Virus record (IMG/VR): IMGVR_UViG_3300020204_000044
DNA length: 64,000 nucleotides
From: an uncultured virus (IMG/VR IMGVR_UViG_3300020204_000044)
Taxonomy: Duplodnaviria > Heunggongvirae > Uroviricota > Caudoviricetes
Strand: one strand, 5' to 3'
The translations under genes and the position numbers were made by a program. Under the pieces are notes generated by a model, which saw nothing but the letters and a program-made list of their open reading frames with translations, did no database searches and had not been told where the DNA came from. This document shows, piece after piece, positions 6,985-31,470 of the stretch. How positions within the stretch are numbered: the stretch's first letter is position 1; every line of letters begins with the position of its first letter.

Positions 6985-7656
6985 ATGGATCGTAGTCTTT
7001 CAGCCGTAGAAAGCCTAAACACAGCAGTAGCGGGTGTTTTGGGTCGTATGGCAGTGGGTGTTTTCGCTACTTTGGTCGCAGCCGCCGTCATCAACGCCAT
7101 GGGTCTAGTGCCCGTGCTGTTTGGCGGCATCCTAGGATATGTGATCATCTTCGCTCCTCTCGGTATGAGCCTGTTCCTGGCCTGGAAGGGTGCAGAAATG
7201 TCGGAGAGCACCATCAAGGCATGGTATTTTGCCTTTGCTGCTGTGATGGGTGTCAGCCTTAGTCTGATCATCAGCATGTTTACCACAGCCTCGATAGTCA
7301 ATGCTCTAATTGGTACCACTGTGAGTTTTGGTGCCTTGGCAGCATGGGGATACTTCACCAAACGTGATATATCTGGATGGGGACCATTCTTGTTCGCAGG
7401 TGTCATCGGATTGATCGTGGCAGGTATCGCTAACATCTTTATCGCTAGCACCGCTCTGCAGATGACCTTGAATGTGTTGACCATCTTGATCTTCCTAGGA
7501 CTCACAGCCTATGACATGAATCGCATCCGTGATATGTTCTGGTCAGCCAGCGAAAGCGAAATCGCTAGGCTGCAGTGGTTTGGAGCACTGAGCCTCTACA
7601 TCAACTTTATCAATATTTTCGTGAGCCTACTGCAGTTATTTGGCAATAGAGAATAA
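6985..7656 (+). CDS. Bax inhibitor-1 / YccA-YbhL family membrane protein
   Basis: About 7 TM helices; GYFTKRDISGWGPFL, GLTAYDMNRIR, ALSLYINFINIF. Confidence 0.9.
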   Translation: MDRSLSAVESLNTAVAGVLGRMAVGVFATLVAAAVINAMGLVPVLFGGILGYVIIFAPLGMSLFLAWKGAEMSESTIKAWYFAFAAVMGVSLSLIISMFTTASIVNALIGTTVSFGALAAWGYFTKRDISGWGPFLFAGVIGLIVAGIANIFIASTALQMTLNVLTILIFLGLTAYDMNRIRDMFWSASESEIARLQWFGALSLYINFINIFVSLLQLFGNRE

Positions 7657-8416: not shown

Positions 8417-8668
8417 TTATTTAGCCCACATCAAATGATAGGTTAATAGAGTATTTTCGTCGTAGATCTCTGCCATCAATCTTACGCTAGATCCAGAGTG
8501 GTCTAGAACTAATTGACAGCAGGTCTTAGGTTGTTTTAGCAACCAGGAAATTTCATCCTGACCTACTTCTTTCTGCACCTTCGGCCAATCTATATCGTAA
8601 TAATTAGCAGATTCGTCTGTGGTATATTCCCACTCAGCGAGTTTAAAACGGTGCGTCTTCATCTGCAT
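8417..8668 (-). CDS. Hypothetical protein
   Basis: 83-aa ORF downstream of the helicase. Confidence 0.6.
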   Translation of the reverse strand: MQMKTHRFKLAEWEYTTDESANYYDIDWPKVQKEVGQDEISWLLKQPKTCCQLVLDHSGSSVRLMAEIYDENTLLTYHLMWAK

Positions 8669-10064
8669 TCATATTGTTCAAGATTTCACGCAACTTCGTA
8701 CTTTCAACGTGCCCTCGTATCTTGCCAACTGATGCACCTTCGCTAGGTTCTTCTCTCTGTACTTCTGTTTTGCGTTTGATACTTTCAATGATACTGGTAG
8801 CACCACGACTCGCACCATTGTGGCTTTCTTGTTCTTCCTCAGGTAGATCACTGATCTTCAGTGTTTCTAGATTGAATTCTAGATCTACTTTTTGTCCTAC
8901 ACCGCTAGAACTACGAGTTTTCATCAGCTGTATCTGATAGCGCCCACGCTCACGCATGGCACGTGATGTAAAGATACCGAACACATTGTCTGCGGTCTGG
9001 ATCTTGGATAATCCACCTGAGATGTGGCTGTGATCGAATTCTACTTCTTCTACGGCACCTCGATTCAACTGTGCAGCCGTGACCAATATGCATTGTCTCT
9101 CTACTGCGAGATTTCTTAATTCTTCCGATACATATTTGTCTTTGATGAATAGATCCGCGGGTGAAATCTTTTTACTGATAGGCATCAATAGATCTAGATA
9201 ATCTACCAATAGCACATCGACCTTCCTAGTGGTTTTGATTTCGTACTCTTTTAGGTAAGCACGTATGTCATTGGCAGTTTTACCAGAAGGCATATATTTG
9301 ACCTGATATGCGCCTGATTTTTTACCGATGATCCTAACTTTCATTTCGACATCGTCTAGTTCTTTAAAAATCTCTTTGGTATGGATTCCTGTAGTCATGG
9401 CATCCATGCGCATACAGACTAGATCTTCTGAAAGTTCTAGGGTTAGATAAACGACATTTAATCCCTGGAGAGCCCAGTTGACTCCTAGATTAGCCAGGAA
9501 CAAGGATTTACCTGCACCAGAACCCCCTGCGAAGATATTGAGCTCGCCTCTATTCATACCACCGAACAATCTTCGATCGAGGCTAGGCCATCCTGTTGAG
9601 ATCTGCCCATTCTTATCTTTGATTCGCATCAATCTAGCACGGGGATCTTCAAAATAGTTTGTTCCCATATCTTTGGCTAGTCCTATCTGTACTGCTTCCT
9701 TGATCATGACTTCGACAGCACCATAATCTTTTTTCTCTAATAGATCTGCTGAATTAATGATTGCACGTTCTAATGCTTTATGTCTAGTGAAGTTTTCAAA
9801 TTCATCCATCAACCAATCTAAATGGCCTTCCTTGGCTTCTTCTGGTTTCCTCAACCCTACTTTACAGGTAGCATTGACCATTTCATAGTCAGGCAACACA
9901 GAATACTGTTTGGCATATTCATTGATGAACTCTGCGGCATCTTGTAATTTGCGGTCAAATAAAGTGTGATCGAATATTCCTTGGCATCGCACAAATGTTT
10001 CAGCATCTGCCAGCATGAGTTCTAGATATAGTTTTTGTTCTTCGTATCCGTAATCTTTAATCAT
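8643..10064 (-). CDS. gp41: DnaB-like replicative helicase (T4 gp41-like)
   Basis: Walker A GGSGAGKS, TLEL, VDYLDL, TAAQLNR, MKTR. Confidence 0.92.
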   Translation of the reverse strand: MIKDYGYEEQKLYLELMLADAETFVRCQGIFDHTLFDRKLQDAAEFINEYAKQYSVLPDYEMVNATCKVGLRKPEEAKEGHLDWLMDEFENFTRHKALERAIINSADLLEKKDYGAVEVMIKEAVQIGLAKDMGTNYFEDPRARLMRIKDKNGQISTGWPSLDRRLFGGMNRGELNIFAGGSGAGKSLFLANLGVNWALQGLNVVYLTLELSEDLVCMRMDAMTTGIHTKEIFKELDDVEMKVRIIGKKSGAYQVKYMPSGKTANDIRAYLKEYEIKTTRKVDVLLVDYLDLLMPISKKISPADLFIKDKYVSEELRNLAVERQCILVTAAQLNRGAVEEVEFDHSHISGGLSKIQTADNVFGIFTSRAMRERGRYQIQLMKTRSSSGVGQKVDLEFNLETLKISDLPEEEQESHNGASRGATSIIESIKRKTEVQREEPSEGASVGKIRGHVESTKLREILNNMNADEDAPF

Positions 10065-10666
10065 AATATAACGTAATCAATTATAAGACATTTCCTTGGA
10101 ATGGATTTCACAGGATATACTCCATGGAATACATCTCCTTTTGCTATTATACACTTTCCTGGTTCTGGAAGTAAAGCCTTATAACAGGGAGGATTACCGT
10201 CTGTCATAAAAGCGTAAAAGGCCCCGTGTAGATCTTCTTTTTCATCTAAATTCTGTTCTTTAACAGCCTCTGTATAAATTATCTGTGTGATAGATTTTTT
10301 TCCGTGGCTATGGACGCTTTGCCAACCACCTTCTCGATAATCTACCATCCAACTTATCGCTGGCTCTATATCATAATAGATACAATTTTCATACAGACGT
10401 TTTCGAGTCCACTTCGCTATCTTTTCTACGATCGGAAAAAATATTGCTGGATCTATCATTTCACTTTCGCCATAAAACCGATGATTTATTCTTGTAGATA
10501 ATTCAGGATCTCTCCACATAGGAAATTGCCAGGCATTAAATGACGAAGTTTCACGGCTATAGTCTTTTTTAGAATCACCGATTGTAAAAGGTTTTATATC
10601 CTCATAATCGTTATAATATGAATCTAATAAAAATTGATTGCCGCAGACATAAAGATTATTGGTCAT
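10061..10666 (-). CDS. 2OG-Fe(II) oxygenase-like protein
   Basis: SWMVDY..GGWQSVHSH, FHGVYP, RKCL. Confidence 0.6.
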   Translation of the reverse strand: MTNNLYVCGNQFLLDSYYNDYEDIKPFTIGDSKKDYSRETSSFNAWQFPMWRDPELSTRINHRFYGESEMIDPAIFFPIVEKIAKWTRKRLYENCIYYDIEPAISWMVDYREGGWQSVHSHGKKSITQIIYTEAVKEQNLDEKEDLHGAFYAFMTDGNPPCYKALLPEPGKCIIAKGDVFHGVYPVKSIPRKCLIIDYVIL

Positions 10667-11631
10667 TTTATTTCTATGTGCTTAGCCAGTTCGCCTTTCC
10701 AATCGATCCTAATCTGTCGGCGATACAGTGCTGCACCAATGGCACTGCTGGCATCACCGGGGATCGGCAAACTCCATATACGATCATATTGTCCTGACAA
10801 TTTTTTGTTGAATTTGCTGTTCATGGCGCAGCCACCCATGTATACTAGATTTTTACTAGGCGCTAATTTTTTTGCCCAATCGAAAACATGTTGGGCCTGC
10901 ACCTCGAATTCTTCTTGCACAGCAGCAGCCAGATCAAAAATATTTTGTTGATCCATATCTAGAAATGGCCAATTCCAAACACCTCTATGTAAATTATATC
11001 TCATGGTGAGATCTGATCTCCAATATTTTTTGACCAAATCTCTATACCTCCCGGGATCGCCCCGATCGCTTAATTTTTGCAAAACGTGTTCTTCACCCAA
11101 CGGTTTCAAACCAACTAAATCTGTGAATGCCGAATAAAATATACCAAGGCTAGTCGGATAAGATCTGCTAAACACCTTTTCTAACTTCATATTGTCGGCC
11201 TGCCATATAGATATGCTTTCCCATTCCCCTATGGCATCTATCACCACCACAGAGGCTTGATCAAAAGGACTAGTATAATACCCGGCTGCGGCATGACTGA
11301 GATGATGATCCATGTATGAAATCTTTACTTTTGGCCATCCCAGTTTTTTTAGATATCTACTCGGTATATCGTTTAAATCAAATGCAGCATAAAACTGTCC
11401 TGCATACACCTGCCTACACTTTTTCCACAGGGGTCGTTCATACCAAACGATTTCATCCGGCGACCTACCATTGCTATGATTTAGCGCATCGAAATAGATC
11501 CTTGAACAGAGATATTGATCACCGATTGAGCCAGAATATTCAGCACTGCGTTTCCAAAATTTTAAACCGGTGTCATCAACGACAGCGATACTGGCGTCGT
11601 GATTGAGGGCATTGATACCCCATGTAATCAT
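10663..11631 (-). CDS. Carbamoyltransferase N-terminal (Kae1-like) domain only
   Basis: WGINALNHDAS, HHLSHAAA, VIDAIGE, GGCAMN, PGDASSAIGAA, then ends; start moved to ATG 11631 (ATGA overlap). Confidence 0.85.
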   Translation of the reverse strand: MITWGINALNHDASIAVVDDTGLKFWKRSAEYSGSIGDQYLCSRIYFDALNHSNGRSPDEIVWYERPLWKKCRQVYAGQFYAAFDLNDIPSRYLKKLGWPKVKISYMDHHLSHAAAGYYTSPFDQASVVVIDAIGEWESISIWQADNMKLEKVFSRSYPTSLGIFYSAFTDLVGLKPLGEEHVLQKLSDRGDPGRYRDLVKKYWRSDLTMRYNLHRGVWNWPFLDMDQQNIFDLAAAVQEEFEVQAQHVFDWAKKLAPSKNLVYMGGCAMNSKFNKKLSGQYDRIWSLPIPGDASSAIGAALYRRQIRIDWKGELAKHIEIK

Positions 11632-11765
11632 ATCATCATTCCTCTTTGACATTCTACCTTATATATCATAATATATTCTGGGATATGTATCATAGATAAT
11701 AGAGCCAAAAATGAGAAAGTGGCTGCCATAAATCCTAGGAAGAAAGAGAAAAGATATTTTTTCAT
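11628..11765 (-). CDS. Small membrane peptide (45 aa, not in ORF track)
   Basis: MKKYLFSFFLGFMAATFSFLALLSMIHIPEY...; ATGA overlaps at both ends. Confidence 0.55.
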   Translation of the reverse strand: MKKYLFSFFLGFMAATFSFLALLSMIHIPEYIMIYKVECQRGMMI

Positions 11766-11878
11766 TTGTATATAAATGGATCTCTTTTTTTAAGTTCTTC
11801 TAGTCTTTTTTTCCAAGCACGATTTTGCTGGTATCGCTTATACGGCCAAACAATAAAATCTATAATTTTTTTAAACAT
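11762..11878 (-). CDS. Small protein ending KRDPFIYK (38 aa, not in ORF track)
   Basis: MFKKIIDFIVWPYKRYQQNRAWKKRLEELKKRDPFIYK; overlaps the primase stop. Confidence 0.65.
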   Translation of the reverse strand: MFKKIIDFIVWPYKRYQQNRAWKKRLEELKKRDPFIYK

Positions 11879-12893
11879 CTGTCTTCTCCAATTCAGCAAA
11901 CTTATTCAAAAGTTTTCTTTTTTCTATTTCGATTTTCGCAGGATTGTCTGTGGCGGATTTTATTAGATCGACAATGACAAATAATTTGCCATATCTTTTC
12001 ACAGCGTCTGCGCAGTCTTTAATGTCATCTTCCCAGTTAGGAAAAGCCACGCTCCAACCTAATTTCTGTGCCTGTGCAATCAAGATCAATCCTGCAAGAT
12101 CTTGATCGGGAACGATTATAGTTTCTTTGCCTATATCATTAATTATTCTGCTCTGCTGATCTGATACCTCGTTAGTGAGCAAAGCCACACCTCCGATGCT
12201 CAAGGCATCGAATGGTCCCTCTGCTACAAATAGATATTTGTATTCTTCTTTCTGTGCATCTACGTTATAAACGAAAAATGGATGTTGATCTGAAAGATAT
12301 TTAGGTCGACCTTCTCCGATTTTTCTAGCGGTATTGCCTACGATTTTACCATGATAGAAAAAGGGAATGATCACTCGATTAGCGTAGCCTGGAGCGGGCG
12401 ACCAATAAAAATTTTCACTGATAGGATCAAATCCTCGTTGATAAACATAATCGATCACCGGTTCCAGATCATCGGCGATTTCTCCGAGATACCCACTATT
12501 GACCCAATCGTTGATAGGCATAGATCCTTCGGGTAACGTTTTCTCTTCGAACTCAATTTTCTGTTCTACATACTGGGTCGGTGAGTAACCTTCGCCTTCG
12601 GTTTTCAGCGCCTCAAATGTCAATTCTTTGATCGTGTCACTGGAGGCTCCTAGCCACTGACAGAGAGTTTTAAATTTAGGAGATAATGTAGAACCTGGTT
12701 TCCATCCTGTGGAAAATTTACAATTAAAACAGTTATAAACGATACCTTCGCTGAGCATGATACCCGCACGTTTTCTAGTGTCGGCACGATGTCCCCGGTG
12801 ATGGCAACAAGGAGCATTGAAACTCATCCATCCACTAGGACTATTCTTAATCTTGGGAAGGAGAGATCTAAATTTATCTACGACTAACGTCAT
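11871..12893 (-). CDS. gp61: DNA primase (T4 gp61-like)
   Basis: Zn finger (APCC...YNCFNC), RVIIPF, TARK, TOPRIM EGPFDA and PDQD, KDCAD. Confidence 0.88.
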   Translation of the reverse strand: MTLVVDKFRSLLPKIKNSPSGWMSFNAPCCHHRGHRADTRKRAGIMLSEGIVYNCFNCKFSTGWKPGSTLSPKFKTLCQWLGASSDTIKELTFEALKTEGEGYSPTQYVEQKIEFEEKTLPEGSMPINDWVNSGYLGEIADDLEPVIDYVYQRGFDPISENFYWSPAPGYANRVIIPFFYHGKIVGNTARKIGEGRPKYLSDQHPFFVYNVDAQKEEYKYLFVAEGPFDALSIGGVALLTNEVSDQQSRIINDIGKETIIVPDQDLAGLILIAQAQKLGWSVAFPNWEDDIKDCADAVKRYGKLFVIVDLIKSATDNPAKIEIEKRKLLNKFAELEKTDV

Positions 12894-12899
12894 AAGAAC

Positions 12900-12928
12900 A
12901 GTATACTATCTATAGAGTATGCTGTCAA
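12900..12928 (-). promoter_or_regulatory. sigma70-type promoter, leaderless primase mRNA
   Basis: TTGACA 12928-12923, N17, TATACT 12905-12900, ATG 6 nt later. Confidence 0.8.
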
Positions 12929-13727
12929 GACTCCCGTAGTTGGATATTAGATGATCGGGCGTGTGTTTAATCCTAAACCAATTGTATTTTCCAACGATGT
13001 TTTTATAAACTGGAGTCGTTTGGTTGGTGTAAGAATCTGTATCTAAATCTACCCATGCTGTGGGATTTCCCCCATCACTTTGGCTTCCTTGGATGACGAT
13101 ATCACCGTAATATCCAGTCATATTAAATTGAAAAGTATGTAGACTCTGTGGTGTGGATAATTGAGGATTAGCATCGATAATGCTGGAGATGTAAAATCTC
13201 GCTTGGCTAGAAAAATCTATCCTAAAATCTTTAAATTCATCTATCTCGATACTGTCTACGGGTTCTCCAAACAAATCGCCATATATTTCTAGATTTGAAA
13301 AAGTACCATATTGAGAATCGATATAAAACGGAGTCCTAGATGATACTATAGAATTGTCGCTGTTATTTCTAATTTGTCCTACTATGGAATATTGATAAAA
13401 TCCTGGTTCTACATCTGTTAGTTCGCTTTCAGTTAATGTCACGTGAATCTTTCCGCCGGATAAACTCTGGACCGCGCAGTCTTTGGTTAGTATTAGTTCT
13501 TTGGTTTCTCGATTGACTATGTTAAAGACGAAGTCATCATAGTCGCTTACATCGTAGATTTTTTCATCTGAATTTCTCACTTGGATGTCAACGCGGTTAT
13601 CGGCGCCGCGATACAGTTTTAAATTGCGATTATACACTTGTCGATACCTCTCTGTTTTCCATGAGGCCAGATAATTTGTGTAAGCATTGACCTTGTTTGG
13701 ATATAAATAAACTGAAATTAGTTGCAT
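12906..13727 (-). CDS. Putative virion protein, BppU-like beta-sandwich (start moved to 13727)
   Basis: LKLYRGADN..I...N.D, G.I.V.LT...L..V.PG.Y.YSI pattern; TAAATA upstream. Confidence 0.5.
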   Translation of the reverse strand: MQLISVYLYPNKVNAYTNYLASWKTERYRQVYNRNLKLYRGADNRVDIQVRNSDEKIYDVSDYDDFVFNIVNRETKELILTKDCAVQSLSGGKIHVTLTESELTDVEPGFYQYSIVGQIRNNSDNSIVSSRTPFYIDSQYGTFSNLEIYGDLFGEPVDSIEIDEFKDFRIDFSSQARFYISSIIDANPQLSTPQSLHTFQFNMTGYYGDIVIQGSQSDGGNPTAWVDLDTDSYTNQTTPVYKNIVGKYNWFRIKHTPDHLISNYGSLDSILYR

Positions 13728-13752
13728 ACTAGGACCCTTCGAATATTTATCT

Positions 13753-14124
13753 ATGAGAATCACTGAAAATTTACAAGAAAATTTTCCATTTATTACAGTA
13801 TTAAATCATGTTAACGCAGAATATGTGGGCATCGTTATTAATCAAGATGCTCAGGTTACCAGCATTTATGATTATGCCAGTATACGATCCGATCAAGAAA
13901 AACAGCGGTTTTTAGAACTAGGAGAAGTGTGGTGGTGGGAATCAAACAGACAAATACCGATCAATATTTTTCTAAATAGAGAGATAGTCGTATTCAAATA
14001 TGCCATACGCAACTTCAGTACCAAAGATGTCAAAATACTATTAGGCCCTTGCACCAGCCTCAATGACATTATCGTAAAGAGAATAAAACGTAAATCGATT
14101 ACGTTAATAAGAAAACCCGGTTAA
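13753..14124 (+). CDS. Conserved hypothetical phage protein
   Basis: FPFIT...EYVGIV.N, FLELGEVWWWESNRQIPINIFL; TATAAATA at 13702-13709. Confidence 0.75.
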   Translation: MRITENLQENFPFITVLNHVNAEYVGIVINQDAQVTSIYDYASIRSDQEKQRFLELGEVWWWESNRQIPINIFLNREIVVFKYAIRNFSTKDVKILLGPCTSLNDIIVKRIKRKSITLIRKPG

Positions 14125-14696
14125 CTGTATCCATAACTTATCTGCTCACAGATCAGATTCATCTGTACCACGATAGCCATGGCATACGCAGTGGCATGAG
14201 ATTTTTTAAAATAATAATCGTCATTTGTCGGTTTCGTCCATATCTCTTTCATTATGATAGTCCAGTCTTTCCCAATCAGATAGCGTTTGGCTGGGCGAAT
14301 CATAGCAAGGACGGCAGATAATTGTTCCACGGAAGTAGGGCAAGTCTTCTTCAGTATATCCCCGTGCCCGTTCAAATGAAATAATAGATCCACAAATTCT
14401 TGTTGTTGTAATAGATCCCATAGCGGCTCTCGGTTCATTAATTCGTTGAGATGATGTTCATCTCTGATTCCTTTGTATATTCCTACATTAAGAAAATCTA
14501 TTTTAAAAAAACCTTTTTCTTCTGCCTGTTCGTAAGGTATTTCACATAAGCCTGTTTTTAAATCGATAGGAACCTGATGGAGATAGATTCCTGTGTTGTG
14601 TTTGACAAGATTGCCATCATCTAGACGACTGGCCACTTTATATCTAAATAATTTTAACGCCCGGTCTCGATCAACGAAATCTATATCGATATCCAT
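14121..14696 (-). CDS. Minimal DNA polymerase III alpha (DnaE)-like catalytic core
   Basis: DIDIDF, KHNTG, FKIDFL, LAMIRP and FKKSHATAYA in DnaE order within 191 aa. Confidence 0.8.
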   Translation of the reverse strand: MDIDIDFVDRDRALKLFRYKVASRLDDGNLVKHNTGIYLHQVPIDLKTGLCEIPYEQAEEKGFFKIDFLNVGIYKGIRDEHHLNELMNREPLWDLLQQQEFVDLLFHLNGHGDILKKTCPTSVEQLSAVLAMIRPAKRYLIGKDWTIIMKEIWTKPTNDDYYFKKSHATAYAMAIVVQMNLICEQISYGYS

Positions 14697-14697
14697 A

Positions 14698-14922
14698 TTA
14701 GTGCATCCTAATAGTTTCGAATAATAGCAATGGAAGATTGTCTGCTAAAAATTGAGCATATTCTTCGGCATCTTCTTCATCTTCGAATCCCGAAAACTGT
14801 ACCATGATCACCGGTTCGTCAGCCATCACTCTCACTTCGATATCAATGTTGTCTCGAGAAATTAATTCTTCGTTTTCTTTTAATTCTACTTCTGTGCTTT
14901 CTTCTTTTGCGTGTTTACTCAT
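14698..14922 (-). CDS. Hypothetical acidic protein
   Basis: 74-aa ORF in operon. Confidence 0.65.
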   Translation of the reverse strand: MSKHAKEESTEVELKENEELISRDNIDIEVRVMADEPVIMVQFSGFEDEEDAEEYAQFLADNLPLLLFETIRMH

Positions 14923-15605
14923 TATAAAATTTTAGCCTCTATGATAACATCTTTGACCAACTCAATATCGGCAGGTAACGATTTGAATCTCCTTAACCAA
15001 TATTGAGGATCTATTATGGGACCAATGATTTCTAACTGCTCATCGTTCATCCGTTGTAACATATCTTTTCCTGCTTTTGTATTTAATATTAACCAAGGAC
15101 TGATCAACCCTTCTTTTATATCATGTGTAGCACGGTTTAAATTAGCATAGGCAAAGTAATGCTCCCACGGTGCAGAATTTGATTCGCTCCAATCCATCAT
15201 AGCGGTAATTGATCTTTGCACGGCGCCGTCGGCAGGCTCGTTTTTTATCAATTCGCTGATATATGAATAATACAGTTCATCTCTACACCAGTGATCTAAT
15301 TTAACTCCGCTTTTGATAACATACTCTATGAACATCTCCGGATATATGGGATTGGTATTGACTAGAAAACTTCCAAATTTTACAAAGGCTGAGTAATAAG
15401 GACTTTGTACAAAATCGTCAAAAGTTTTTTTAGATTTGCCTTTCTGTGCGAAATCGTAGAATTTTTGGAACGTCAATAGCCCTGTTTGCACATGTTTTTC
15501 ATTTCTGTTTAAGTATCGTCTTTTCTGTTCGCAGACATGTACCGCTAAAGTTTTTTCTTTAGCAAATTCTTTCTGACAATATTCGCACTTATAATTTAAT
15601 TGCAT
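14922..15605 (-). CDS. Zn-finger (C2HC/C2H2-like) conserved phage protein (start moved to 15605)
   Basis: YKCEYCQKEF.KEKTL.VHVCE. Confidence 0.7.
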   Translation of the reverse strand: MQLNYKCEYCQKEFAKEKTLAVHVCEQKRRYLNRNEKHVQTGLLTFQKFYDFAQKGKSKKTFDDFVQSPYYSAFVKFGSFLVNTNPIYPEMFIEYVIKSGVKLDHWCRDELYYSYISELIKNEPADGAVQRSITAMMDWSESNSAPWEHYFAYANLNRATHDIKEGLISPWLILNTKAGKDMLQRMNDEQLEIIGPIIDPQYWLRRFKSLPADIELVKDVIIEAKIL

Positions 15606-16068
15606 TGATCTGCTTTTTATCCCACCCGAGAGATAGTGCATATTCTTTGATTTCTTCATCTGTAGTGATCGATGCCAGCGTTTCTATGTCCGACATCTTC
15701 ATAGTTGGAAATTGTTCTGCGAGAAATTCTTCTTTTTTGTTTCGATGCACCTTCAATGGGATCCATTCGTGGAAATGTGTTTTTTTGCTGTCATGGCTGC
15801 ATAACGTTAATGTCTGCCATTGCAGTTGTGGATGCTTTGCTATTTCCGACCAATTTTTATTATAGAATTCATTGACGGTTAGTACGAAATGCTCTTGCAG
15901 TTCCCTATCTTTGGTTTTAACATTGCTGATATATCGCATCAAGGTCCAGAGATCTCCTTTGATTTCTTTGCGACCTTCTTCTGTGGCAGCCTCCCACAGT
16001 TCTTTGATCCCCATGTCTACCGCGGGGATCATATCTTTGAATAGGTCTACGTGTTTATTTTTTCCCAT
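15589..16068 (-). CDS. Possible clamp-loader small subunit (gp62-like)
   Basis: Size, position and W.LMRYIS...VNE..N...HPQLQW...W pattern; weak motif support. Confidence 0.4.
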   Translation of the reverse strand: MGKNKHVDLFKDMIPAVDMGIKELWEAATEEGRKEIKGDLWTLMRYISNVKTKDRELQEHFVLTVNEFYNKNWSEIAKHPQLQWQTLTLCSHDSKKTHFHEWIPLKVHRNKKEEFLAEQFPTMKMSDIETLASITTDEEIKEYALSLGWDKKQINAIKL

Positions 16069-16324
16069 CTTTTTTACTCAAGTGATATATCATTATAGCA
16101 CGATCTAATGCTTCTTTCAAGAGAGGATTATTTTTTGCCTCTCGACGGATTTCTCCCCATAATTTGGAATCTCGCAAATCGTCGATCAATGGCTTACCAT
16201 CCTCTGTTCTTGGATCGTAGTCCCAGCCGATCGCTTCTTGATCTAGACTGCCATCTTCTTGTTGATACACGATTCCTTCTCTGCGAGTATAGATATACTC
16301 AACTCCTGGTTTTAGTTTTCCCAT
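16055..16324 (-). CDS. Hypothetical protein (start moved to 16324)
   Basis: MGKLKPGVEYIY...LW.EIRR.AK.NP.L.EAL. Confidence 0.65.
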   Translation of the reverse strand: MGKLKPGVEYIYTRREGIVYQQEDGSLDQEAIGWDYDPRTEDGKPLIDDLRDSKLWGEIRREAKNNPLLKEALDRAIMIYHLSKKDGKK

Positions 16325-16667
16325 CTTTTGAAAATCCCACAGTTTCTCGTTCGATATCTTCATGATCGAATTCAGCCCAATAGAGTTCAAAAGCCACAGT
16401 TTCTTCTAAGGCTTCAAACTGATGATATTCTCCAGGAGCCACTTTGGTATATTGTCCTGCAGTTAATATGGTTTCGTCTACCAGATCGTAATTGTTCTTC
16501 CACACTCTGATGACCAACTTTCCAGATTCGACGAAAAAACCATTCCATTTATACTTGTGTCTGTGCTTTGAACAGACTCCACCTGCCCTGGCTTCTATCC
16601 TATGGAATTCTAAAACTCCGTTGGCTTCTAGTAATTCTGTCTCACCCCACACCTTTCCTGCGATCAT
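16299..16667 (-). CDS. Cupin (mannose-6-phosphate isomerase-like)
   Basis: GKVWG, CSKHRH...NGFFV.SG, V.PG.YHQFEA; AAGGAG SD. Confidence 0.75.
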   Translation of the reverse strand: MIAGKVWGETELLEANGVLEFHRIEARAGGVCSKHRHKYKWNGFFVESGKLVIRVWKNNYDLVDETILTAGQYTKVAPGEYHQFEALEETVAFELYWAEFDHEDIERETVGFSKDGKTKTRS

Positions 16668-16694
16668 TGCTTTCTCCTTATCTCTTTAACTATA

Positions 16695-17201
16695 TTAAAT
16701 TATCTTATGCAGTTGAACGATCTCGCTTTGCCTACTGACTTCTTTGACAAAAAATGCGCAAGGTGGACTTTCATCGGAATGTAGGGGCACCGTTAAAAAC
16801 TGACCGTTCTTCATTTTGGGAAAATACCAGCGGACATCTTGAAAAATGTTCACGATTTCTATAGTCATATATTCGCATTTAAATCCATTGATAGGATTGA
16901 ATATAAACGCATCGAATCCACGTTCGTTGATGCTGGTCAACGGTAGAACTTCTGGATCCAGCCCGCATTCTTTATCTCCTACGACCATGCACCAATCTAA
17001 GGGCATCTGGACTTCGTGGCCCCCTATGTTCAATAATATCGCAGGACTATTAAATGATTCTAGGAAGATCAGCGGCATGAAAAAGAAATCCGGATCGTTG
17101 GGATTACTGTTATCCAGCACTGAAAATCTAGTATCTTCATCTACTTCGTTCGGTAACTCATTAAGATCGAAGGCTGTGTTGTTTAATGTTAATATTCTCA
17201 T
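16695..17201 (-). CDS. Conserved hypothetical phage protein
   Basis: 168-aa beta-rich ORF in operon. Confidence 0.7.
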   Translation of the reverse strand: MRILTLNNTAFDLNELPNEVDEDTRFSVLDNSNPNDPDFFFMPLIFLESFNSPAILLNIGGHEVQMPLDWCMVVGDKECGLDPEVLPLTSINERGFDAFIFNPINGFKCEYMTIEIVNIFQDVRWYFPKMKNGQFLTVPLHSDESPPCAFFVKEVSRQSEIVQLHKII

Positions 17202-17908
17202 TTATTCCTCTTTTCTAACATCGCTCGAGTTTTTTGATAAGACAAATCGAATGAATGAGTCCATCGTCCAAAATGTTTGTTCCAATCTCGATCATCGAAC
17301 AGATTAATGTCCATATCCCAGTCCTCCTCAAACATGGGAATGAATTGTGCCAATGCCTGACCCGCTTTTATGCGGATCATGTACGGTTCTGATTTTAGTT
17401 TCAACAGGCAATTTATATTGCTGACATGCTGATATTTGAATTCTAAGATACCGGGAGCCACGGTCCATTCTAAAGGATCTTTTTGATCCCAAACAGGTGA
17501 CATCATCAACCATTTTACCATCCGATCAGTTTTAAAATACCACGGACTCATCAATTTTATGTTGCAATAACCGGGCCATGCACCTGAGGCCTGGCTGTCA
17601 ATGTGATGTCTTTCTAAGGGCAGTTTGATTTCTTCTTTGCAGGCAAAATCGTAGGCGATAGATCCGTCCGGGCGGACTTCGATGTCGATGTCTGACCAAG
17701 ACCTAATGAGAAAACTGTTTTTATAAAGATCCTGGAATCCGTTACAATGCCGCACGGTGACCCAATCGGGATCTTTGCTAAGGTCGAAATACCAATTAGG
17801 CAAAGACCCTTTGCCTGCCTGAGGCGGAAATAGATCGACTAGGCTCTGCATGGTAGTATAGCATTGTAGTTTGATCTTTTTCTTTTTAAAATTAAAAAAA
17901 TTTATCAT
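17198..17908 (-). CDS. Hypothetical beta-rich accessory protein
   Basis: LPNWY...TVRHC.GF.D, KL.SPW, PG, I.AG..LAQ.IP. Confidence 0.65.
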   Translation of the reverse strand: MINFFNFKKKKIKLQCYTTMQSLVDLFPPQAGKGSLPNWYFDLSKDPDWVTVRHCNGFQDLYKNSFLIRSWSDIDIEVRPDGSIAYDFACKEEIKLPLERHHIDSQASGAWPGYCNIKLMSPWYFKTDRMVKWLMMSPVWDQKDPLEWTVAPGILEFKYQHVSNINCLLKLKSEPYMIRIKAGQALAQFIPMFEEDWDMDINLFDDRDWNKHFGRWTHSFDLSYQKTRAMLEKRNK

Positions 17909-19359
17909 ATGGTAACCTTGGTGACTTGGAAGGGATATTTTGCTTCTTTATAATATTTTTTTCTTTCTGTGAGATGACGTTTGGCATACTTACAGGTCGA
18001 AGTTATATCCCAGATCTGCACGAAATCTTTGTCTTCGGCTTTTCTGATGCCTCGTCCTATGCTCTGTATCACCCGAACAAAACTCTTGCCAGGTTCCAAT
18101 AGAACCAAGTTGAAAATACGAGGTATATTGATACCTACAGCGGCAACGCCGTAAGTTGCCACGATGATTTTATTATCGGCCGTTTTAATTTCATCATATT
18201 CTTCTTTTCTATCGTCTAGTTTTACCGCACCCGAGATGAATGCCGAATCTTTTAAAATCGCAGTGATCTTATTTCCTGTGTCGATCCTATTGACTAACAC
18301 TAATGTATTACCTGTATCAGAAATTTCTTCGATCTTGTTAGCGATCCATTCGATCCTTTTTTCATCGGTGACTAGCCAGGTATATTCTTCTTGATATGAA
18401 CGGAATTCTTCTATGTCTATGGTTTGTAGCACGTTGATTTCTAATTTCGCCAGCACATCTTTTTGTTGTAGATCATAAGCCGATACTTGATTTATCACAG
18501 GTCCTATGCCAGCCAATAGACTCTGGAATTCCCATTTTTCTTTAGGTATAGTTCCTGTTAAACCCCAACGGATAGGACAATTACGGAAGTTCTGAGTGGC
18601 CAATCTCATTAGTACATCTGCTTTGGCCTGATGCACCTCGTCGATGATAACGGCAATCACCCCTTCGCAGAATTCTGCCAAAGATAAAGTATCGTCGTCA
18701 TAACTCTTTTTCTCGAGCACGTTGAGACTCTGCCATGTGCAGATAGTGTGTGTTCGATTTAATTCTTTGCGATCTCCGAAATACACGCCAACGTCTAAGC
18801 CTAGATTCTTGTAGTCTTCTTCAGTCTGGACAACAAGCGATTTGTTCGGAACAATAACCATCGTACGGCCATAAGGTTCACAAAGATGCGAAAGCGTCGC
18901 GGTAGTAATCGTTTTACCAGCACCTGTAGCTACCTCCTGTAATGATTGCGGGTTTTTTAAAAACTTGTTAACCACATCATATTGATAATCTCTCAGCACG
19001 ATTGGTTGGCCTGCCGCCGGGTGACCTATTGGCCAAGTCTTTCCCTGATCCGCCCAATAGTTTTCTCCGATGTAGGCGAATGACATCGCTTGATGCAGAC
19101 GCTGATCTTCAACTTCTATGTCATATCCGGAATTTTCTATGATGGGAAGTATGACATCTAGATGTGCTAGATAACCGGTCCCCCCTATGCCGAAAAAGGT
19201 CTTAGTTCCATCCCAACGACCTAATTTATATGCAGGCATATGGCGGGCATAGGGAAGATCAAACTTCAGTTCGTTGACAATTTTACGCCGGACTTCTACA
19301 GGCAGGCTCTCGACTTTTATATTGACTTCGTCTTTGATAATCAGTTTACAACTTGACAA
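17905..19359 (-). CDS. uvsW: UvsW SF2 DNA helicase
   Basis: LRDYQ, ATGAGKT, IDEVH, GLTGT, GINIP, QSIGRGIR. Confidence 0.92.
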   Translation of the reverse strand: MSSCKLIIKDEVNIKVESLPVEVRRKIVNELKFDLPYARHMPAYKLGRWDGTKTFFGIGGTGYLAHLDVILPIIENSGYDIEVEDQRLHQAMSFAYIGENYWADQGKTWPIGHPAAGQPIVLRDYQYDVVNKFLKNPQSLQEVATGAGKTITTATLSHLCEPYGRTMVIVPNKSLVVQTEEDYKNLGLDVGVYFGDRKELNRTHTICTWQSLNVLEKKSYDDDTLSLAEFCEGVIAVIIDEVHQAKADVLMRLATQNFRNCPIRWGLTGTIPKEKWEFQSLLAGIGPVINQVSAYDLQQKDVLAKLEINVLQTIDIEEFRSYQEEYTWLVTDEKRIEWIANKIEEISDTGNTLVLVNRIDTGNKITAILKDSAFISGAVKLDDRKEEYDEIKTADNKIIVATYGVAAVGINIPRIFNLVLLEPGKSFVRVIQSIGRGIRKAEDKDFVQIWDITSTCKYAKRHLTERKKYYKEAKYPFQVTKVTI

Positions 19360-20545
19360 TTTTAAAATTCCTTATCACTGTAGGTTTCACTTCTCCTAGA
19401 TAACATAGACAAGGATGATTGAAAATCCACGTAGAAACGATCGCGTCACTGAGCGGAGGCACATAACAGTTTGTCCCTATAATTTTAACATCTATTTTAT
19501 TTTTAAACAACCATTTAGGCGGCTTCTGTAAGAAAATATAGATGTTACCTTCGTCGACTTTTCCTCCTAATCGATTTTCTTTGATCCAAGAGTTAATGTG
19601 AGAATTCTCTTTTTCTGATTCTCTGAAACAGATTTTGATTTCATCTTTACAGCCAGCAATTTCAGCATCAGATATGAACTGTTTTAACCATTCGAGCAAA
19701 TTTTTGGTGTTCTTATCTAAGATCACTGCCGAGCGGCCACCGGCCGATCTATGCAGGTCGAAAAATTTTGAATTCTCTTTCAACCAAAATTGATTGGCAG
19801 AATTAACAGAAACACACTCTACCAAGGTACTGAGTGGTTTTTCCGATTTTAATGGAAACCCCATGGTTTTCGCCAAGAAAATATCCTGTTCGCGGATACC
19901 TGTTTTTTTAGATTCGAACGCTTCGATCGCGTCGTTGACCGCATTGACTAATATGACCCTGTGTTCGTCGGCGCGAGCATACGGCATTATCGAATCTTGC
20001 TGTTGCCATATCTCTTCGACACTGCTGACTAGATCTAAAAATGTATTATCTATGTCAAAATTGTGGTAATTTACGAATTCATTAACGTGCATGATATTGT
20101 GTTTGTATGCTTCAATCATGCGTAATTTTTTTTCATGATCCCATCGATTATTTTCACTGTTCGACCTTTCATTCTTGACCTCGTTGTCGAACGTTTCTTT
20201 TAGCGAGAAGGGGAATTTCAAGCAAATCCAGATTTTTTTCTGATCATCAACTTTGACAAAAACTTTTTTAGATAGATCTAAGGTACGAAAAGGTTTTTTC
20301 CATACCGGATTTGATATCTCCGATTTATAATCTAGACCGAGATCGAAACTTTCGTTTTTATATCTAGATAAAATCTTTAAAAGATAGTTGGCTTGATTAG
20401 AAGTCAGCGATTTTTCGTCATTCGCACAGTAATCATGAAGGCTATATGTGGCCTTGAGGTCCTGATTGGTCACCAATAACTGCTGCGAGGAAATCAAAGA
20501 ATGAAATTGATCAAAAATATCTTCTATGTAAACAGATTTTGACAT
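19346..20545 (-). CDS. Hypothetical protein upstream of UvsW
   Basis: 399-aa ORF with its own promoter. Confidence 0.75.
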   Translation of the reverse strand: MSKSVYIEDIFDQFHSLISSQQLLVTNQDLKATYSLHDYCANDEKSLTSNQANYLLKILSRYKNESFDLGLDYKSEISNPVWKKPFRTLDLSKKVFVKVDDQKKIWICLKFPFSLKETFDNEVKNERSNSENNRWDHEKKLRMIEAYKHNIMHVNEFVNYHNFDIDNTFLDLVSSVEEIWQQQDSIMPYARADEHRVILVNAVNDAIEAFESKKTGIREQDIFLAKTMGFPLKSEKPLSTLVECVSVNSANQFWLKENSKFFDLHRSAGGRSAVILDKNTKNLLEWLKQFISDAEIAGCKDEIKICFRESEKENSHINSWIKENRLGGKVDEGNIYIFLQKPPKWLFKNKIDVKIIGTNCYVPPLSDAIVSTWIFNHPCLCYLGEVKPTVIRNFKIVKL

Positions 20546-21896: not shown

Positions 21897-22880
21897 ATGA
21901 AAAAGATTGCATTTGTTACCGGAATGACCGGGCAAGATGGTCCGTATCTAGCAAAACTACTACTAGAAAAAGATTATAAGGTCTACGGACTGATAAAAAG
22001 GTATTCCAACCCTAATTTAGACAACATAACATATCTCGGAATCGAACACGATGTCGAATTAATCACCGGCGATATCACTGATGATGGATGCATGAATCAT
22101 TTGATTAAAAGTCTCAAACCCAATGAGTTTTATAATCTCGCAGCACAGAGTTTCGTGGGAGCCAGTTGGGATCTGAACAAATTGACCACCGAAGTAAATG
22201 CCGTCGGAGTGCTTAATATTCTAAACGCCATCAAGCAGCACAACCCCGACACTAGATTTTATCAGGCATCTACCTCAGAGATGTACGGAAACAGCATTGA
22301 AATCTCAGGTGGACACCAAGATGAATCTACACCTTTCTGGCCTCGCAGTCCCTACGGTGTGGCTAAATTATATGCCTATTGGATGACCATAAATTTCCGT
22401 GAAAGTTACAGTCTGCATGCTTCAAACGGAATATTGTTTAATCACGAATCCCCCATCCGAGGCAAAGAATTCGTCACTAGAAAGATCACAGACGGCGTGG
22501 CCAAGATCAAATGCGGTCTAGCAGACAGTATCACGTTAGGTAATCTCGATGCCAAGAGAGATTGGGGATTCGCTGGCGATTTCGTAGAAGCCATGTGGTT
22601 GATGCTACAACAAGATGAACCCGGCGACTATGTCGTGGCCACAGGGCAACAATATACCATAGGTGATCTATTAGAACGTGCATTTAAATATGCTGGAATC
22701 GATGACTGGCAGCAGTATGTTAAAAGTGATCCCAGATTTAAACGTCCTGCAGAATTGTTTAGCCTCTGCGGTAGTCCGAAAAAAGCGGAGACAGTGCTAG
22801 GCTGGCAACGACGCACAAGTTTTGAAGATCTTGTCAGAATGATGGTAGAGGCCGACATACAAAGATATCAGACTAAATGA
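21897..22880 (+). CDS. gmd: GDP-mannose 4,6-dehydratase
   Basis: TGMTGQDG, NLAAQSFV, YQASTSE, PRSPYGVAK, LFNHESP, GNLDAKRDWG. Confidence 0.95.
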   Translation: MKKIAFVTGMTGQDGPYLAKLLLEKDYKVYGLIKRYSNPNLDNITYLGIEHDVELITGDITDDGCMNHLIKSLKPNEFYNLAAQSFVGASWDLNKLTTEVNAVGVLNILNAIKQHNPDTRFYQASTSEMYGNSIEISGGHQDESTPFWPRSPYGVAKLYAYWMTINFRESYSLHASNGILFNHESPIRGKEFVTRKITDGVAKIKCGLADSITLGNLDAKRDWGFAGDFVEAMWLMLQQDEPGDYVVATGQQYTIGDLLERAFKYAGIDDWQQYVKSDPRFKRPAELFSLCGSPKKAETVLGWQRRTSFEDLVRMMVEADIQRYQTK

Positions 22881-23701
22881 AAAAAGCCGTAGTAACTACC
22901 TTCCATAAAGAGGGCTACGACAAATATGCCAAGAGGATGGTACAAACATTCTTGAAGACTTGGCCCGGGGATATAACATTATATGCATATCCTCAAGATC
23001 ATACCATAGACGAATCTGCAGAAAATCTCGTAGTTCGAGATTTACACGAATCGTGCCCGGAATTAGTCTCTTTTAAAAATCGGTGGAAGGATGATCCTAA
23101 GGCCAGGGGCGAAGTAGCGACTGGCCCAATGGATCGTAAAGGCAAGCAGCCAGGAATCGGGTTTAGGTGGGATGCTATTCGATTTAGCCATAAGATCTAT
23201 TCTGTTTGCCATGCTGCTCGAAACACTGAGGCTGACCTATTGCTATGGATGGATGCTGATATGATCTGCCATACTCCTGTTCCTCATCATTTTATCGATA
23301 GGATGTGTCAATCCCATATTGGTCTAGGATTTTTAGGCAGAGAAAGGAAATTTACTGAATGTGGTCTTTACTCTATGAATCTTAGAGATAAAAACACACA
23401 GGAATTTTTATCTGAATTCCAACAGGCCTACGACAGCGGACGGATTTTCCAGTTCAGTGAATGGAACGATTGCTGGGTTTTTGACGAAGTTCGTAAAGAA
23501 GTCAAGCAACGTCACCCCGAGTGGCAGTGGAACGATTGGTGTCAGGGATTAATCAAAGGTGAAGGTCATCCTTTGGTCAACAGCGAATGGGGTGCTTATC
23601 TGGATCACCTTAAAGGTAACCGTAAAAATCACGGTAAAAGCCTAAAAACCGATTTTATACGACCACGCACTGAAAAATATTGGATCAGTCATCAGAGTTA
23701 A
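22877..23701 (+). CDS. GT-A glycosyltransferase (paralog family B)
   Basis: RFSHK, WMDAD (DxD), ECG, W.DC.VFD, YLDHLKG. Confidence 0.7.
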   Translation: MKKAVVTTFHKEGYDKYAKRMVQTFLKTWPGDITLYAYPQDHTIDESAENLVVRDLHESCPELVSFKNRWKDDPKARGEVATGPMDRKGKQPGIGFRWDAIRFSHKIYSVCHAARNTEADLLLWMDADMICHTPVPHHFIDRMCQSHIGLGFLGRERKFTECGLYSMNLRDKNTQEFLSEFQQAYDSGRIFQFSEWNDCWVFDEVRKEVKQRHPEWQWNDWCQGLIKGEGHPLVNSEWGAYLDHLKGNRKNHGKSLKTDFIRPRTEKYWISHQS

Positions 23702-24401
23702 ATTCAGCCTTGCTGTGTTTGGCTTTATAATGTTCCATGTAAGATCCTAAAACAGTATGGCGCATCGGAGTCTTATAAGGTTTGGTAAAATTTTTGCAGA
23801 GATCTAATCCGTCTGCTTTCGTTTGTTCAAATACATATCCATAAACATCGTTGTCATAAAATCTTCTTAACATATGATGGTCCTGTTCAACGTAATGCCG
23901 TCTATATTCTTTTTTAAACTGATCAAATAATTTATGTTTTGTATTGATCGCAAAAAACCCAGTTTCAGGAACGAACCACTTTCCAGGTGAACCATCTTTT
24001 GCAGTAGTATATATTACACCCATATGTGTACTTAATACCGTCTCTGGTAAAATTGATTCTATAAATTTTATATCGATGTTTTTTACATGTAAAACATCGG
24101 CATCGAGCCAGATGATTCTATCAGCATTTGAATTATGCATCGCATGAATAAAGCTCCAGGCTTTTTTCGCAAACTTCTTTACCTGTTTATGGGCAGTTTC
24201 TTGGAATATAAAATATTCTTTTTCAAAGTCGTCGAATGATATTTGATGTATTCTAGTGTTGTTAGGAATATTAAATTCTTCAACATAACAAGTCAATGTC
24301 ATGTCTTCAGGCCAAAATTTTAACCACGACTCTACAGCATCTTTGCCTATAAGATCATAATAGTGTTGATTGAAACTGGTAATAACTTGTATTTTAAGCA
24401 T
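23685..24401 (-). CDS. GT-A glycosyltransferase (paralog family B)
   Basis: KFAKK, WLDAD, ETGFF, YD.DVY, YMEHYK. Confidence 0.7.
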   Translation of the reverse strand: MLKIQVITSFNQHYYDLIGKDAVESWLKFWPEDMTLTCYVEEFNIPNNTRIHQISFDDFEKEYFIFQETAHKQVKKFAKKAWSFIHAMHNSNADRIIWLDADVLHVKNIDIKFIESILPETVLSTHMGVIYTTAKDGSPGKWFVPETGFFAINTKHKLFDQFKKEYRRHYVEQDHHMLRRFYDNDVYGYVFEQTKADGLDLCKNFTKPYKTPMRHTVLGSYMEHYKAKHSKAEFNSDD

Positions 24402-25332
24402 AATTTCTCATATGACTCCAACAAGTTCCGTTAGAGATTTCACTGAAACTCCAATGGAACATTGCTAGACGCTCGACCCATCTTTGTCTATCTGGTAAAT
24501 CGGGATTTTCTATCTTAGAAAAATCATTATTAGAGATTTCTTTGCTCTGGCTACGATCGGGATCTGTGACAAATACCGGATAACCTTCTATTGCTGCTGC
24601 CACTGTAGGACTAGAGTTATAGTTTACCACTGCCCAACAATCTTTTAAATCCCCCATTAAATCCACACTCTCTTTGCTTAATCTTACTTTTTTTAACATG
24701 CCTATTTTTTTAATTAGATTATTTGGGGAGAGATAATTTTTAGATCCCTTGTCACCGGGATGAGCACGGATAACTATTTCTCTATCAGTGTATTTTCTTA
24801 ATTCTCGAAGAGTCTGTGCAGTCCAATCAACAACATCAAATCCATTCATGCTCCAACCTCCGTTTCGTTGTAAACACAATAAAATATGATTGCCATTACT
24901 TCGATAATCTTTTAAAGATAAACCGATGTGTTGCGAAACAGATACCCATCTAGACGGATCTATGTCTGTGTCACAATAATCACCCGTATTTGGAAAAATT
25001 CCGTTATAGCTATATCTTAAATAATGATGAGGGTTAGATTTATCCTTGTAGAGAAATAAATTAGAATCTGCCAATAAGACTTTTTTATTTTTACGTTTTT
25101 GTTCTTCTATAATTTGTCTACGAAATACCAAATGAGGCGTGTCTCTTGAATCTTCATGGACCCACCCTATCATCATAGCTACGTCAGCATCTATAAGATT
25201 TCGCTGTTCATGAATAATAACATCGTCTAATCCTAGATAAGCGACGCCTAAAGGGAATCTATTTAAAATTTCATTTTTTTCGAGATTTTTGTTTGTAGGA
25301 GGCAGGCACGCCTGATAAACAACGAATTTCAT
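24394..25332 (-). CDS. KpsS/KpsC-like GT-B protein
   Basis: ILLCLQ, IRAHP, VVNYNSS..VAAAIEGYP. Confidence 0.65.
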   Translation of the reverse strand: MKFVVYQACLPPTNKNLEKNEILNRFPLGVAYLGLDDVIIHEQRNLIDADVAMMIGWVHEDSRDTPHLVFRRQIIEEQKRKNKKVLLADSNLFLYKDKSNPHHYLRYSYNGIFPNTGDYCDTDIDPSRWVSVSQHIGLSLKDYRSNGNHILLCLQRNGGWSMNGFDVVDWTAQTLRELRKYTDREIVIRAHPGDKGSKNYLSPNNLIKKIGMLKKVRLSKESVDLMGDLKDCWAVVNYNSSPTVAAAIEGYPVFVTDPDRSQSKEISNNDFSKIENPDLPDRQRWVERLAMFHWSFSEISNGTCWSHMRNYA

Positions 25333-31429: not shown

Positions 31430-31470
31430 ATCAATATTTATGTACGCATTTAATTGGTTAAATAGTTTCT

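Follow-up and report, generated by a model that had tools for sequence, protein, structure and literature searches.

A 191-residue DnaE-like protein of an uncultured jumbo phage is very probably one unit of a split minimal DNA polymerase III alpha

How should an open reading frame (ORF) of 191 codons be understood when it carries the motifs of DnaE, the alpha subunit of DNA polymerase III (Pol III alpha), in their proper order? The ORF lies at 14121..14696 on the minus strand of a 64,000-nucleotide stretch of an uncultured virus (IMG/VR record IMGVR_UViG_3300020204_000044), and we refer to the whole of this stretch as the window. A first-pass annotation, made by a model from the letters alone, had described the product as a minimal DnaE-like polymerase core that was either a split polymerase subunit or a stand-alone mini-polymerase. 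Based on the reading frame, a match to PHROG 11778, an AlphaFold2 model and the ratio of nonsynonymous to synonymous substitution rates (dN/dS), together with what is found in related phages, we believe that the gene very probably encodes the C-terminal, metal-binding unit (C-unit) of a two-gene, split minimal Pol III alpha belonging to the group 2.2 (Rak2/121Q/PA5oct/Atu_ph07-like) jumbo phages.

The C-unit ORF has 191 open codons and begins at the first ATG downstream of an in-frame stop. AGGA precedes this ATG, which lies 1 nt after the stop of an upstream 74-codon ORF, and at the other end the C-unit stop overlaps that of a convergent ORF in the palindrome TTAA. In the translation we read DIDIDF at residues 2-7, KHNTG at 32-36, KIDFL at 65-69, AMIRP at 131-135 and FKKSHATAY at 163-171, colinear with DnaE and as the first-pass annotation had them.

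Profile searches connect this protein to the C-family polymerases. Residues 1-185 match positions 7-194 of the 197 in phrog_11778, annotated as 'DNA polymerase', at E 6.7e-67, and there is a faint match to the 1190-position DnaE family phrog_405, also in PHROGs. The family has at least 7974 proteins (7974 of 8000 scored candidates at E <= 0.001), many of which carry the JGI label 'DNA polymerase III alpha subunit', and a full-library profile search returned 503 clusters at 50% identity with E <= 0.001, 339 of them with E <= 1e-10. Because of the PHROG 11778 match and these candidate and cluster counts, the DnaE kinship is, from sequence comparison, far beyond chance. The NCBIfam scores of the C-unit are 16.5 bits for TIGR00594 (cut-off 434) and 11.2 bits for NF004226 (cut-off 1002). 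A homolog profile was needed to search PDB, because phmmer with the single sequence reached DnaE1 only at E 2.9, alongside a chance match to beta-spectrin. The profile was made from 25 C-unit homologs that are 57-100% identical (alignment A1), and it matched seven PDB sequences at E <= 10, all seven of them Pol III alpha. The best was Mycobacterium tuberculosis DnaE1 (5lew, E 0.0021), with colinear stretches at 415-425, where D2-D6 align with the DIDIDF of 5lew at 415-420, and at 566-663 and 773-788.

The predicted structure leads to the same group of proteins. The AlphaFold2 model has a mean predicted local distance difference test score (pLDDT) of 86.0 and a predicted TM-score of 0.68. Bacterial C-family polymerases fill the first 17 places in Foldseek (best match at E 1.2e-3, with probability 1.00), and the sole other nucleotidyltransferase listed is MenT4, at E 1.2. 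With VIA-align the top 15 entries again belong without exception to the C-family, and the first unrelated one scores Z 3.7. The alignment to 5lew has Z 9.4 and a root-mean-square deviation (rmsd) of 4.9 over 187 aligned residues, spanning 420-811; those to Escherichia coli alpha 2hnh (Z 8.4, 401-784), Taq alpha (Z 8.7-8.9, 462-841) and PolC 3f2b (Z 8.7, 972-1299) cover similar stretches. Taken together, the sequence-profile and structure alignments place the C-unit on the part of DnaE that runs from the catalytic DxD as far as the 'NKSH' finger helix, with long stretches deleted. By the profile-alignment coordinates, about 100 residues of DnaE1 are absent between the DxD and the third Asp, and about 87 more within the fingers. 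The thumb of E. coli alpha falls in the first of these gaps, going by the domain limits reportedly given by Lamers et al. 2006.

The residues expected of an active site have been kept. The codons of D2-I-D4-I-D6, the DxDxD strand, are at 14679..14693 (-), those of K65-I-D67, which supply the third carboxylate, at 14496..14504 (-), those of R134-P135, aligned to the DnaE finger motif 'ALYRPG' (5lew 659-663), at 14292..14297 (-), and those of K164-K165-S166-H167, aligned to the finger motif 'NKSHA' (5lew 773-788), at 14196..14207 (-). In the model the DxD is on strand 2-7, and K65 and D67 are on strand 65-70. We take the D2/D4/D6 strand to be equivalent to D399/D401/D403 of E. coli alpha, and K65/D67 to K553/D555. 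In alignment A1, D2, D4, D6, K65, D67, R134, P135, K164, K165 and H167 are invariant (25/25), and 24 relatives share the start M-DIDIDF, residues 1-7. We also examined 97 distant representatives, 175-235 amino acids long and 30-60% identical to the window protein, taken from the 150 best after omitting 53 fragments or length outliers. Among these, Asp is retained at D2 in 95, D4 in 95, D6 in 92 and D67 in 97, Lys at K65 in 97, and the finger residues R134 in 95, P135 in 96, K164 in 89 and H167 in 92. The claim that all three catalytic Asp equivalents are present (D4, D6 and D67) is therefore borne out, and homologs have not lost them.

The same numbers bear on whether the gene is a decaying piece of a dnaE that was captured from a host, or a non-catalytic scaffold of the replisome. 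Only part of DnaE is covered, and Pfam does not see the C-unit, as might be expected of a remnant. Against this, dN/dS is about 0.10 relative to an 86%-identical relative (L025; more distant pairs are saturated at synonymous sites), representatives of the 503 clusters are of uniform length, mostly about 187-216 amino acids, the catalytic residues are retained in 92-97 of 97 representatives, and gene order is conserved among phages whose proteins are merely 39-56% identical. The C-unit gene is intact and under purifying selection, and we give next to no credence to decay or to a scaffold.

To place the source phage, the C-unit was compared by tblastn with 50,697 phage records. It matched 96 of them, every one at less than 60% identity, and among the matches listed the genomes are 284-490 kb, except for one unannotated record of 94 kb. 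The best identities are with Agrobacterium phage Atu_ph07 (55.8%) and Sinorhizobium phage Phosso (54.6%), followed by the PA5oct group (44%), XacN1, and the 121Q/PBECO4 group (39%). A megablast of window positions 12000-20000 against phages found no match. For replication and recombination the window encodes a DnaB-like helicase, a DnaG-like primase, a UvsW-like helicase, UvsX, UvsY and a gp32-like single-strand-binding protein; its other contents include the large terminase, tail sheath, tail tube and a big block of sugar-nucleotide genes. From this gene content and the tblastn relatives, the source is an uncultured jumbo phage of the Rak2/121Q/PA5oct/Atu_ph07 assemblage.

A polymerase palm also needs what the C-unit does not have. 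The C-unit starts exactly at the DxD strand, and the nucleotide-binding GRGS part of the palm is missing. The first-pass annotation was thus right about the kinship to DnaE, and 'minimal core' goes too far, as the N-terminal palm half with the GRGS is absent along with the PHP, HhH and OB domains. On the last three it was correct: the Pfam scan of the C-unit ORF, its 7 neighbours and 59 other window ORFs (59 + 8 in total) found no PHP, finger, HhH, OB or PolB family. We searched for the missing half with Pfam PF07733, the DnaE palm, in five complete relatives, Phosso, Atu_ph07, 121Q, PA5oct and XacN1. Each of the five genomes gave one match, to a small ORF that is separate from the C-unit homolog and covers only model positions 16-98. 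We call this the N-unit. It is annotated as 121Q gp56, Phosso 138 and PA5oct gp196, with lengths of 169-178 amino acids, and its C-terminal end reads '...GVGRGSSVASY...L..EFL[NK]', which is the DnaE segment just before the DxD. Across 25 N-units, WGVGRGS, SY and EFFK are invariant.

The two units meet closely on the DnaE map. N-units end 4-10 residues past 'EF[LF]K', and C-units begin 0-15 residues before the DxD. In one IMG/VR record (G004) the N-unit lies on PF07733 positions 15-97 and the C-unit, weakly, on 99-120 and 238-259, and because the C-unit resumes the model at 99, the split point falls between the GRGS element and the metal-binding strand. On the NCBIfam DnaE-family models the N-unit maps to positions ~273-393, which, by the E. 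coli domain limits, is just past the PHP domain. The two genes are far apart in the genomes, at about 15 kb in XacN1, 30 kb in 121Q, 44 kb in PA5oct, 182 kb in Atu_ph07 and 224 kb in Phosso, and at 167-180 kb in three IMG/VR records. The N-unit is present in 3 of 5 partial IMG/VR records that carry the C-unit. Pfam detects neither an intein nor a Hint family in either unit, nor in the fused form described next.

Two further observations suggest that the halves form one enzyme. A metagenome protein of 375 amino acids (P0203) is apparently a natural single-chain form, in which an N-unit with GVGRGS is followed by a linker of ten residues and by DFDIDT, and it spans PF07733 positions 12-121 and TIGR00594 positions 302-417 unbroken across the junction. 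It is the only fusion among the 150 best representatives, and a word-based search for longer homologs found none further. A second candidate (P0271, 350 amino acids, on a 2-kb contig) was rejected, as it has an unrelated N-terminus on the last 57% of a C-unit and is probably a chimera or truncation. We also co-folded the cognate pair from one relative (G003), whose C-unit is 71% identical to that of the window, giving both chains as 25-row alignments. The score was 0.89, versus 0.06 for the best of 3 controls; in the tool's own benchmark the mark was attained by 116 of 157 solved complexes and by 2 of 215 mismatched pairs. The runs share at least 95% of their contacts, and the partner pLDDT is at least 85. 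In the model, C-unit residues 1-7, the DxDxD strand, lie against N-unit residues 114-127, which include W118-S124 with the GRGS. The co-fold thus supports binding of the N-unit to the C-unit, as far as a predicted complex can.

Of the two functions proposed in the first-pass annotation, the split subunit gains from the separate partner gene in all five relatives, the co-fold and the P0203 fusion, and the stand-alone mini-polymerase is not supported. A self-sufficient 191-residue enzyme could point to its three Asp and both finger motifs within a single ORF, and to a model that is confident by itself (pLDDT 86). However, the C-unit begins at the DxD strand and does not have the nucleotide-binding GRGS element, which is invariant in the partner family, and for this reason the stand-alone reading is unsupported. 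The partner gene accompanies it in 5/5 complete relatives, in the co-fold the strand at the C-unit N-terminus lies buried beneath partner residues 114-127, and an apparently natural fusion joins both halves. We regard self-sufficiency as very improbable.

The complete relatives also tell us which other polymerases such an enzyme would work with. A gp43-like B-family polymerase is present in 5/5 of them and an A-family polymerase above cut-off in 0/5, and PHP (PF02811) was found in 0/5 of their genomes, with controls detected in 14/14 genomes. There is no PolB within the 64-kb window. By tblastn, no DnaQ-like epsilon was found in the window or in 80 related loci, and a 276-aa ORF of the window that we considered for this role is unrelated to 121Q gp9.

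The C-unit operon is part of a conserved replication module at 8643..19359 (-), delimited by PHROG and Pfam matches and gene order. The module includes a DnaB-like helicase (8643-10064), a DnaG-like primase (11871-12893), a structural-like gene (12906-13763), a protein that we call p168 (16695-17201) and a UvsW-like helicase (17905-19359). The same gene order is found in Atu_ph07, 121Q, PA5oct and three IMG/VR relatives, in part in Phosso, and not in XacN1. The C-unit gene sits between UvsW and the primase-helicase pair, and the conservation of this position speaks for a function at the fork or in repair. Promoter and terminator motifs were about as frequent as chance predicts (22 sites versus 17.1 expected, and 7 versus 4.1).

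We propose the following mechanism. Alone, the C-unit would be half an active site, providing the D2/D4/D6 strand, the adjoining K65/D67 strand (the metal ligands), and a helical finger module that has been shortened and bears R134 and K164-K165-S166-H167. The N-unit, of about 155-180 amino acids and encoded outside the window, would provide the WGVGRGS triphosphate-binding element and the first part of the palm. The two chains most likely dock, rebuilding a Pol-beta-like nucleotidyltransferase palm in which the GRGS of the N-unit would hold the triphosphate, D4, D6 and D67 of the C-unit would hold two Mg2+, and R134 and K164-H167 would touch both the template and the nucleotide to be added. 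We assume these roles by analogy with DnaE. The enzyme would work beside the phage gp43-like B-family replicase, and because it has no thumb, clamp-binding or proofreading parts, its most likely activity would be DNA-templated synthesis of a short, distributive kind, for instance in repair, in gap filling or in the extension of primers.

A related possibility is that the two-piece enzyme is real and is a Pol-beta-fold nucleotidyltransferase with another chemistry, such as untemplated tailing, synthesis or extension of primers with ribonucleotides, or transfer to a protein or small molecule. The absence of thumb, clamp-binding, HhH and OB parts would fit such an enzyme, as would the loss, relative to DnaE1, of the ~100 residues between the DxD and the third Asp and the ~87 in the fingers, the fact that this phage group already has a complete B-family replicase, and a literature search that yielded no activity data. 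The 'RPG' and 'NKSH' finger motifs of DnaE serve in binding of deoxynucleoside triphosphate and template, and the residues aligned to them are conserved here as strongly as the metal ligands. The location of the gene within a conserved helicase-primase-UvsW replication module, and structure matches confined to C-family polymerases, with MenT4 at a Foldseek E of 1.2, also speak against another chemistry, and we consider it unlikely.

Several points nevertheless weigh against a split, templating Pol III alpha in this phage. In Pfam the C-unit ORF alone matches no family at E <= 1, its sequence similarity to solved DnaE is weak, with 0.0021 as the profile E-value, and the Foldseek list has no match at E <= 0.001 and TM-scores of only 0.32-0.45. 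The N-unit gene is absent from the 64-kb window (tblastn with the N-units of three relatives, best E 0.37), so its presence in this phage is deduced from relatives, and it was not found in 2 of the 5 IMG/VR records with a C-unit, which are 79% and 21% complete. The co-fold used a relative's pair instead of the window's own, and because intact DnaE structures have already been solved, its pass may stem from the model's memory of them. Finally, because the thumb and about half of the fingers have been lost, templated synthesis is unproven and is not distinguishable from another nucleotidyl transfer; that the halves bind in cells and polymerise DNA, and what role the enzyme has, are what we infer from all of the above. 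Weighing these points, we still find the C-unit of a split minimal Pol III alpha to be the very probable identity of this gene.

The immediate neighbours of the C-unit gene give few further clues to function. Directly upstream is the 74-aa acidic ORF at 14698..14922 (-), whose stop is 1 nt before the C-unit start; it is kept at 56-61% identity in close relatives (G002, G003 and G004) and has no family match in Pfam, PHROGs or NCBIfam. Beyond it, at 14922..15659 (-), lies an all-alpha protein with a C2HC zinc finger (PHROG 11058, E 1.3e-63), which accompanies the C-unit as a constant upstream neighbour. Its ORF has 245 codons, and the true start is probably M19 at 15605, giving 227 amino acids. 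The zinc-finger protein named in the first-pass annotation is therefore real, and it is conserved, with tblastn matches in 78 of 80 related loci and in Phosso, Atu_ph07, 121Q and PA5oct. Its model has pLDDT 92.4 and is all-alpha, with no clear fold match in PDB (best VIA Z 4.5), and its Atlas matches are to phage hypothetical clusters only. We tried it as a T4 gp59-like helicase loader and rejected this (Foldseek rank 11 at E 2.1; VIA Z 3.3 with rmsd 12.2; hhalign probability 0.15); the gp59 N-domain PF08993 was found in 0/5 complete relatives. Next is a conserved module protein of 159 amino acids (p159, PHROG 11758) at 15589..16068 (-), assigned from its PHROG match and gene order, for which the sole Pfam hint is a weak match, below cut-off, to the DnaG helicase-binding domain (E 0.019). 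On the other side, the convergent 123-aa ORF (PHROG 11637) at 13753..14124 (+) lies tail-to-tail with the C-unit gene, sharing the TTAA, and is found immediately downstream of the C-unit, on the other strand, in Phosso, Atu_ph07, 121Q, PA5oct, G002, G003 and G004. The 'possible gp62' that had been suggested for this operon, like other replisome names for these neighbours, gets no support from Pfam, PHROGs or NCBIfam.

A more elaborate scheme, which we hold to be rather doubtful, is that the halves are placed on distant transcription units so that the enzyme assembles at a set stage, that the mini-polymerase acts as a Pol-alpha-like starter, extending DnaG primers by a few nucleotides before handing over to the gp43-like replicase, and that the zinc-finger protein, p159 and p168, which are all conserved and of no recognisable fold, are accessory subunits. 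If the starter role were true, these phages would have two-polymerase replisomes with bacterial-type and archaeo-eukaryotic-type enzymes. The split enzyme in its own right, at about 350 amino acids in two chains, would be smaller than any other known relative of the bacterial replicative polymerase. If active, it would show how little a C-family polymerase needs as its catalytic core, and it would belong to a replisome in which a bacterial-type polymerase is paired with a eukaryote-type one. Environmental giant phages carry the family in great abundance, with at least 7974 proteins.

In the C-unit gene we also noted a nested ATG ORF of 66 codons at 14221-14421 (-), in frame +2, whose ATG is formed by the Leu92-Trp93 codons (CTA TGG). 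In 48 of 66 unique homolog genes this frame runs at the same place for 60 or more codons without a stop; the other alternate frame is open for at least 60 codons there in 0/66, with a median of 8 codons. The open stretch is longer than in 95% of 500 synonymous-codon shuffles in 47 of 66 homologs (p = 0.014 for the window); these counts are not independent, as the homologs are related. In about 50 homologs the nested frame has retained an ATG or GTG at this position and has a C-terminus that is acidic. Synonymous divergence from L025 is 0.26 in the nested-frame stretch versus 0.58 upstream of it. The open frame is lacking in some subclades (L028, L030, L064-L071, L086 and L092).

Elsewhere in the window, a sugar-nucleotide block of about 12 kb (21897-33875) separates UvsY from the UvsW region, a gap that is about 1 kb in 121Q. 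Its genes include a GDP-mannose 4,6-dehydratase, epimerases, a cytidylyltransferase/mannose-6-P isomerase fusion, an FkbM methyltransferase and nucleotidyl transferases, and these annotations suggest a role in glycan or DNA-sugar modification. Two carbamoyltransferase-like genes of the NodU/CmcH type are also present, one of 329 amino acids with the N-terminal domain only at 10663-11652 (-), between the DnaB helicase region and the primase, and a full-length one of 553 amino acids at 62336-63997 (-). At 6985-7656 (+) there is a membrane protein of the Bax1-inhibitor (BI-1/YccA) family (PF01027, E 1e-44).

The first-pass annotation implied that the gene was new, and this is not the case. Iyer, Anantharaman, Krishnan, Burroughs and Aravind (2021, Viruses 13:63, PMC7824862) predicted from sequence the same split minimal Pol III alpha in group 2.2 jumbo phages, proposed that it helps with synthesis of one strand or with repair, and suggested that the split minimal form is possibly a living model of the ancestral C-family core. 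In the parts available of two genome papers, the N-unit alone was noticed, as a truncated alpha of 172 amino acids in CBB (PMC5259590) and as gp316 in Atu_ph07 (PMC6102473). The main text of the PA5oct omics paper mentions neither gene, and a search of full-text literature, with subscription journals outside its coverage, found no bench test of the split form, no data on its expression, genetics or enzymatic activity, and no further paper on it. The C-unit is thus a feature already known from comparative genomics since 2021, and the window copy adds nothing beyond that publication. It is like the C-unit described by Iyer et al. in family, size, start at the DxD strand and T4-like jumbo-phage replication context, and, in relatives, in the distant N-unit gene, the B-family polymerase alongside and the absence of PHP. 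We find no substantive difference; the window copy is about 55% identical to those of the nearest isolates, Atu_ph07 and Phosso.

Compared with bacterial DnaE and PolC (5lew, 2hnh, 2hpi, 3f2b), the phage enzyme has the same Pol-beta-like palm, with a DxD and a third Asp, and the same 'RPG' and then 'KSH' finger motifs. The bacterial proteins are of more than 1000 amino acids; in contrast, the two-gene phage enzyme is of about 350, has its palm divided between two polypeptides, and does not have the PHP, thumb, beta-clamp-binding, HhH, OB and tau-binding parts. The intein-split DnaE of cyanobacteria is likewise a C-family polymerase made from two distant genes. There the halves carry split-intein segments and are spliced to one full-length chain, and the break is elsewhere in the protein, whereas the phage pieces are too small for an intein, have none in Pfam, and are broken just before the DxD. 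According to Iyer et al. 2021 (PMC7824862), jumbo phages of group 3.2 (phage G, c-st type) have a full-length, host-like Pol III alpha with PHP as their sole replicase. Both are phage-encoded C-family polymerases, but the enzyme to which the C-unit would belong is minimal, split and accessory to PolB.

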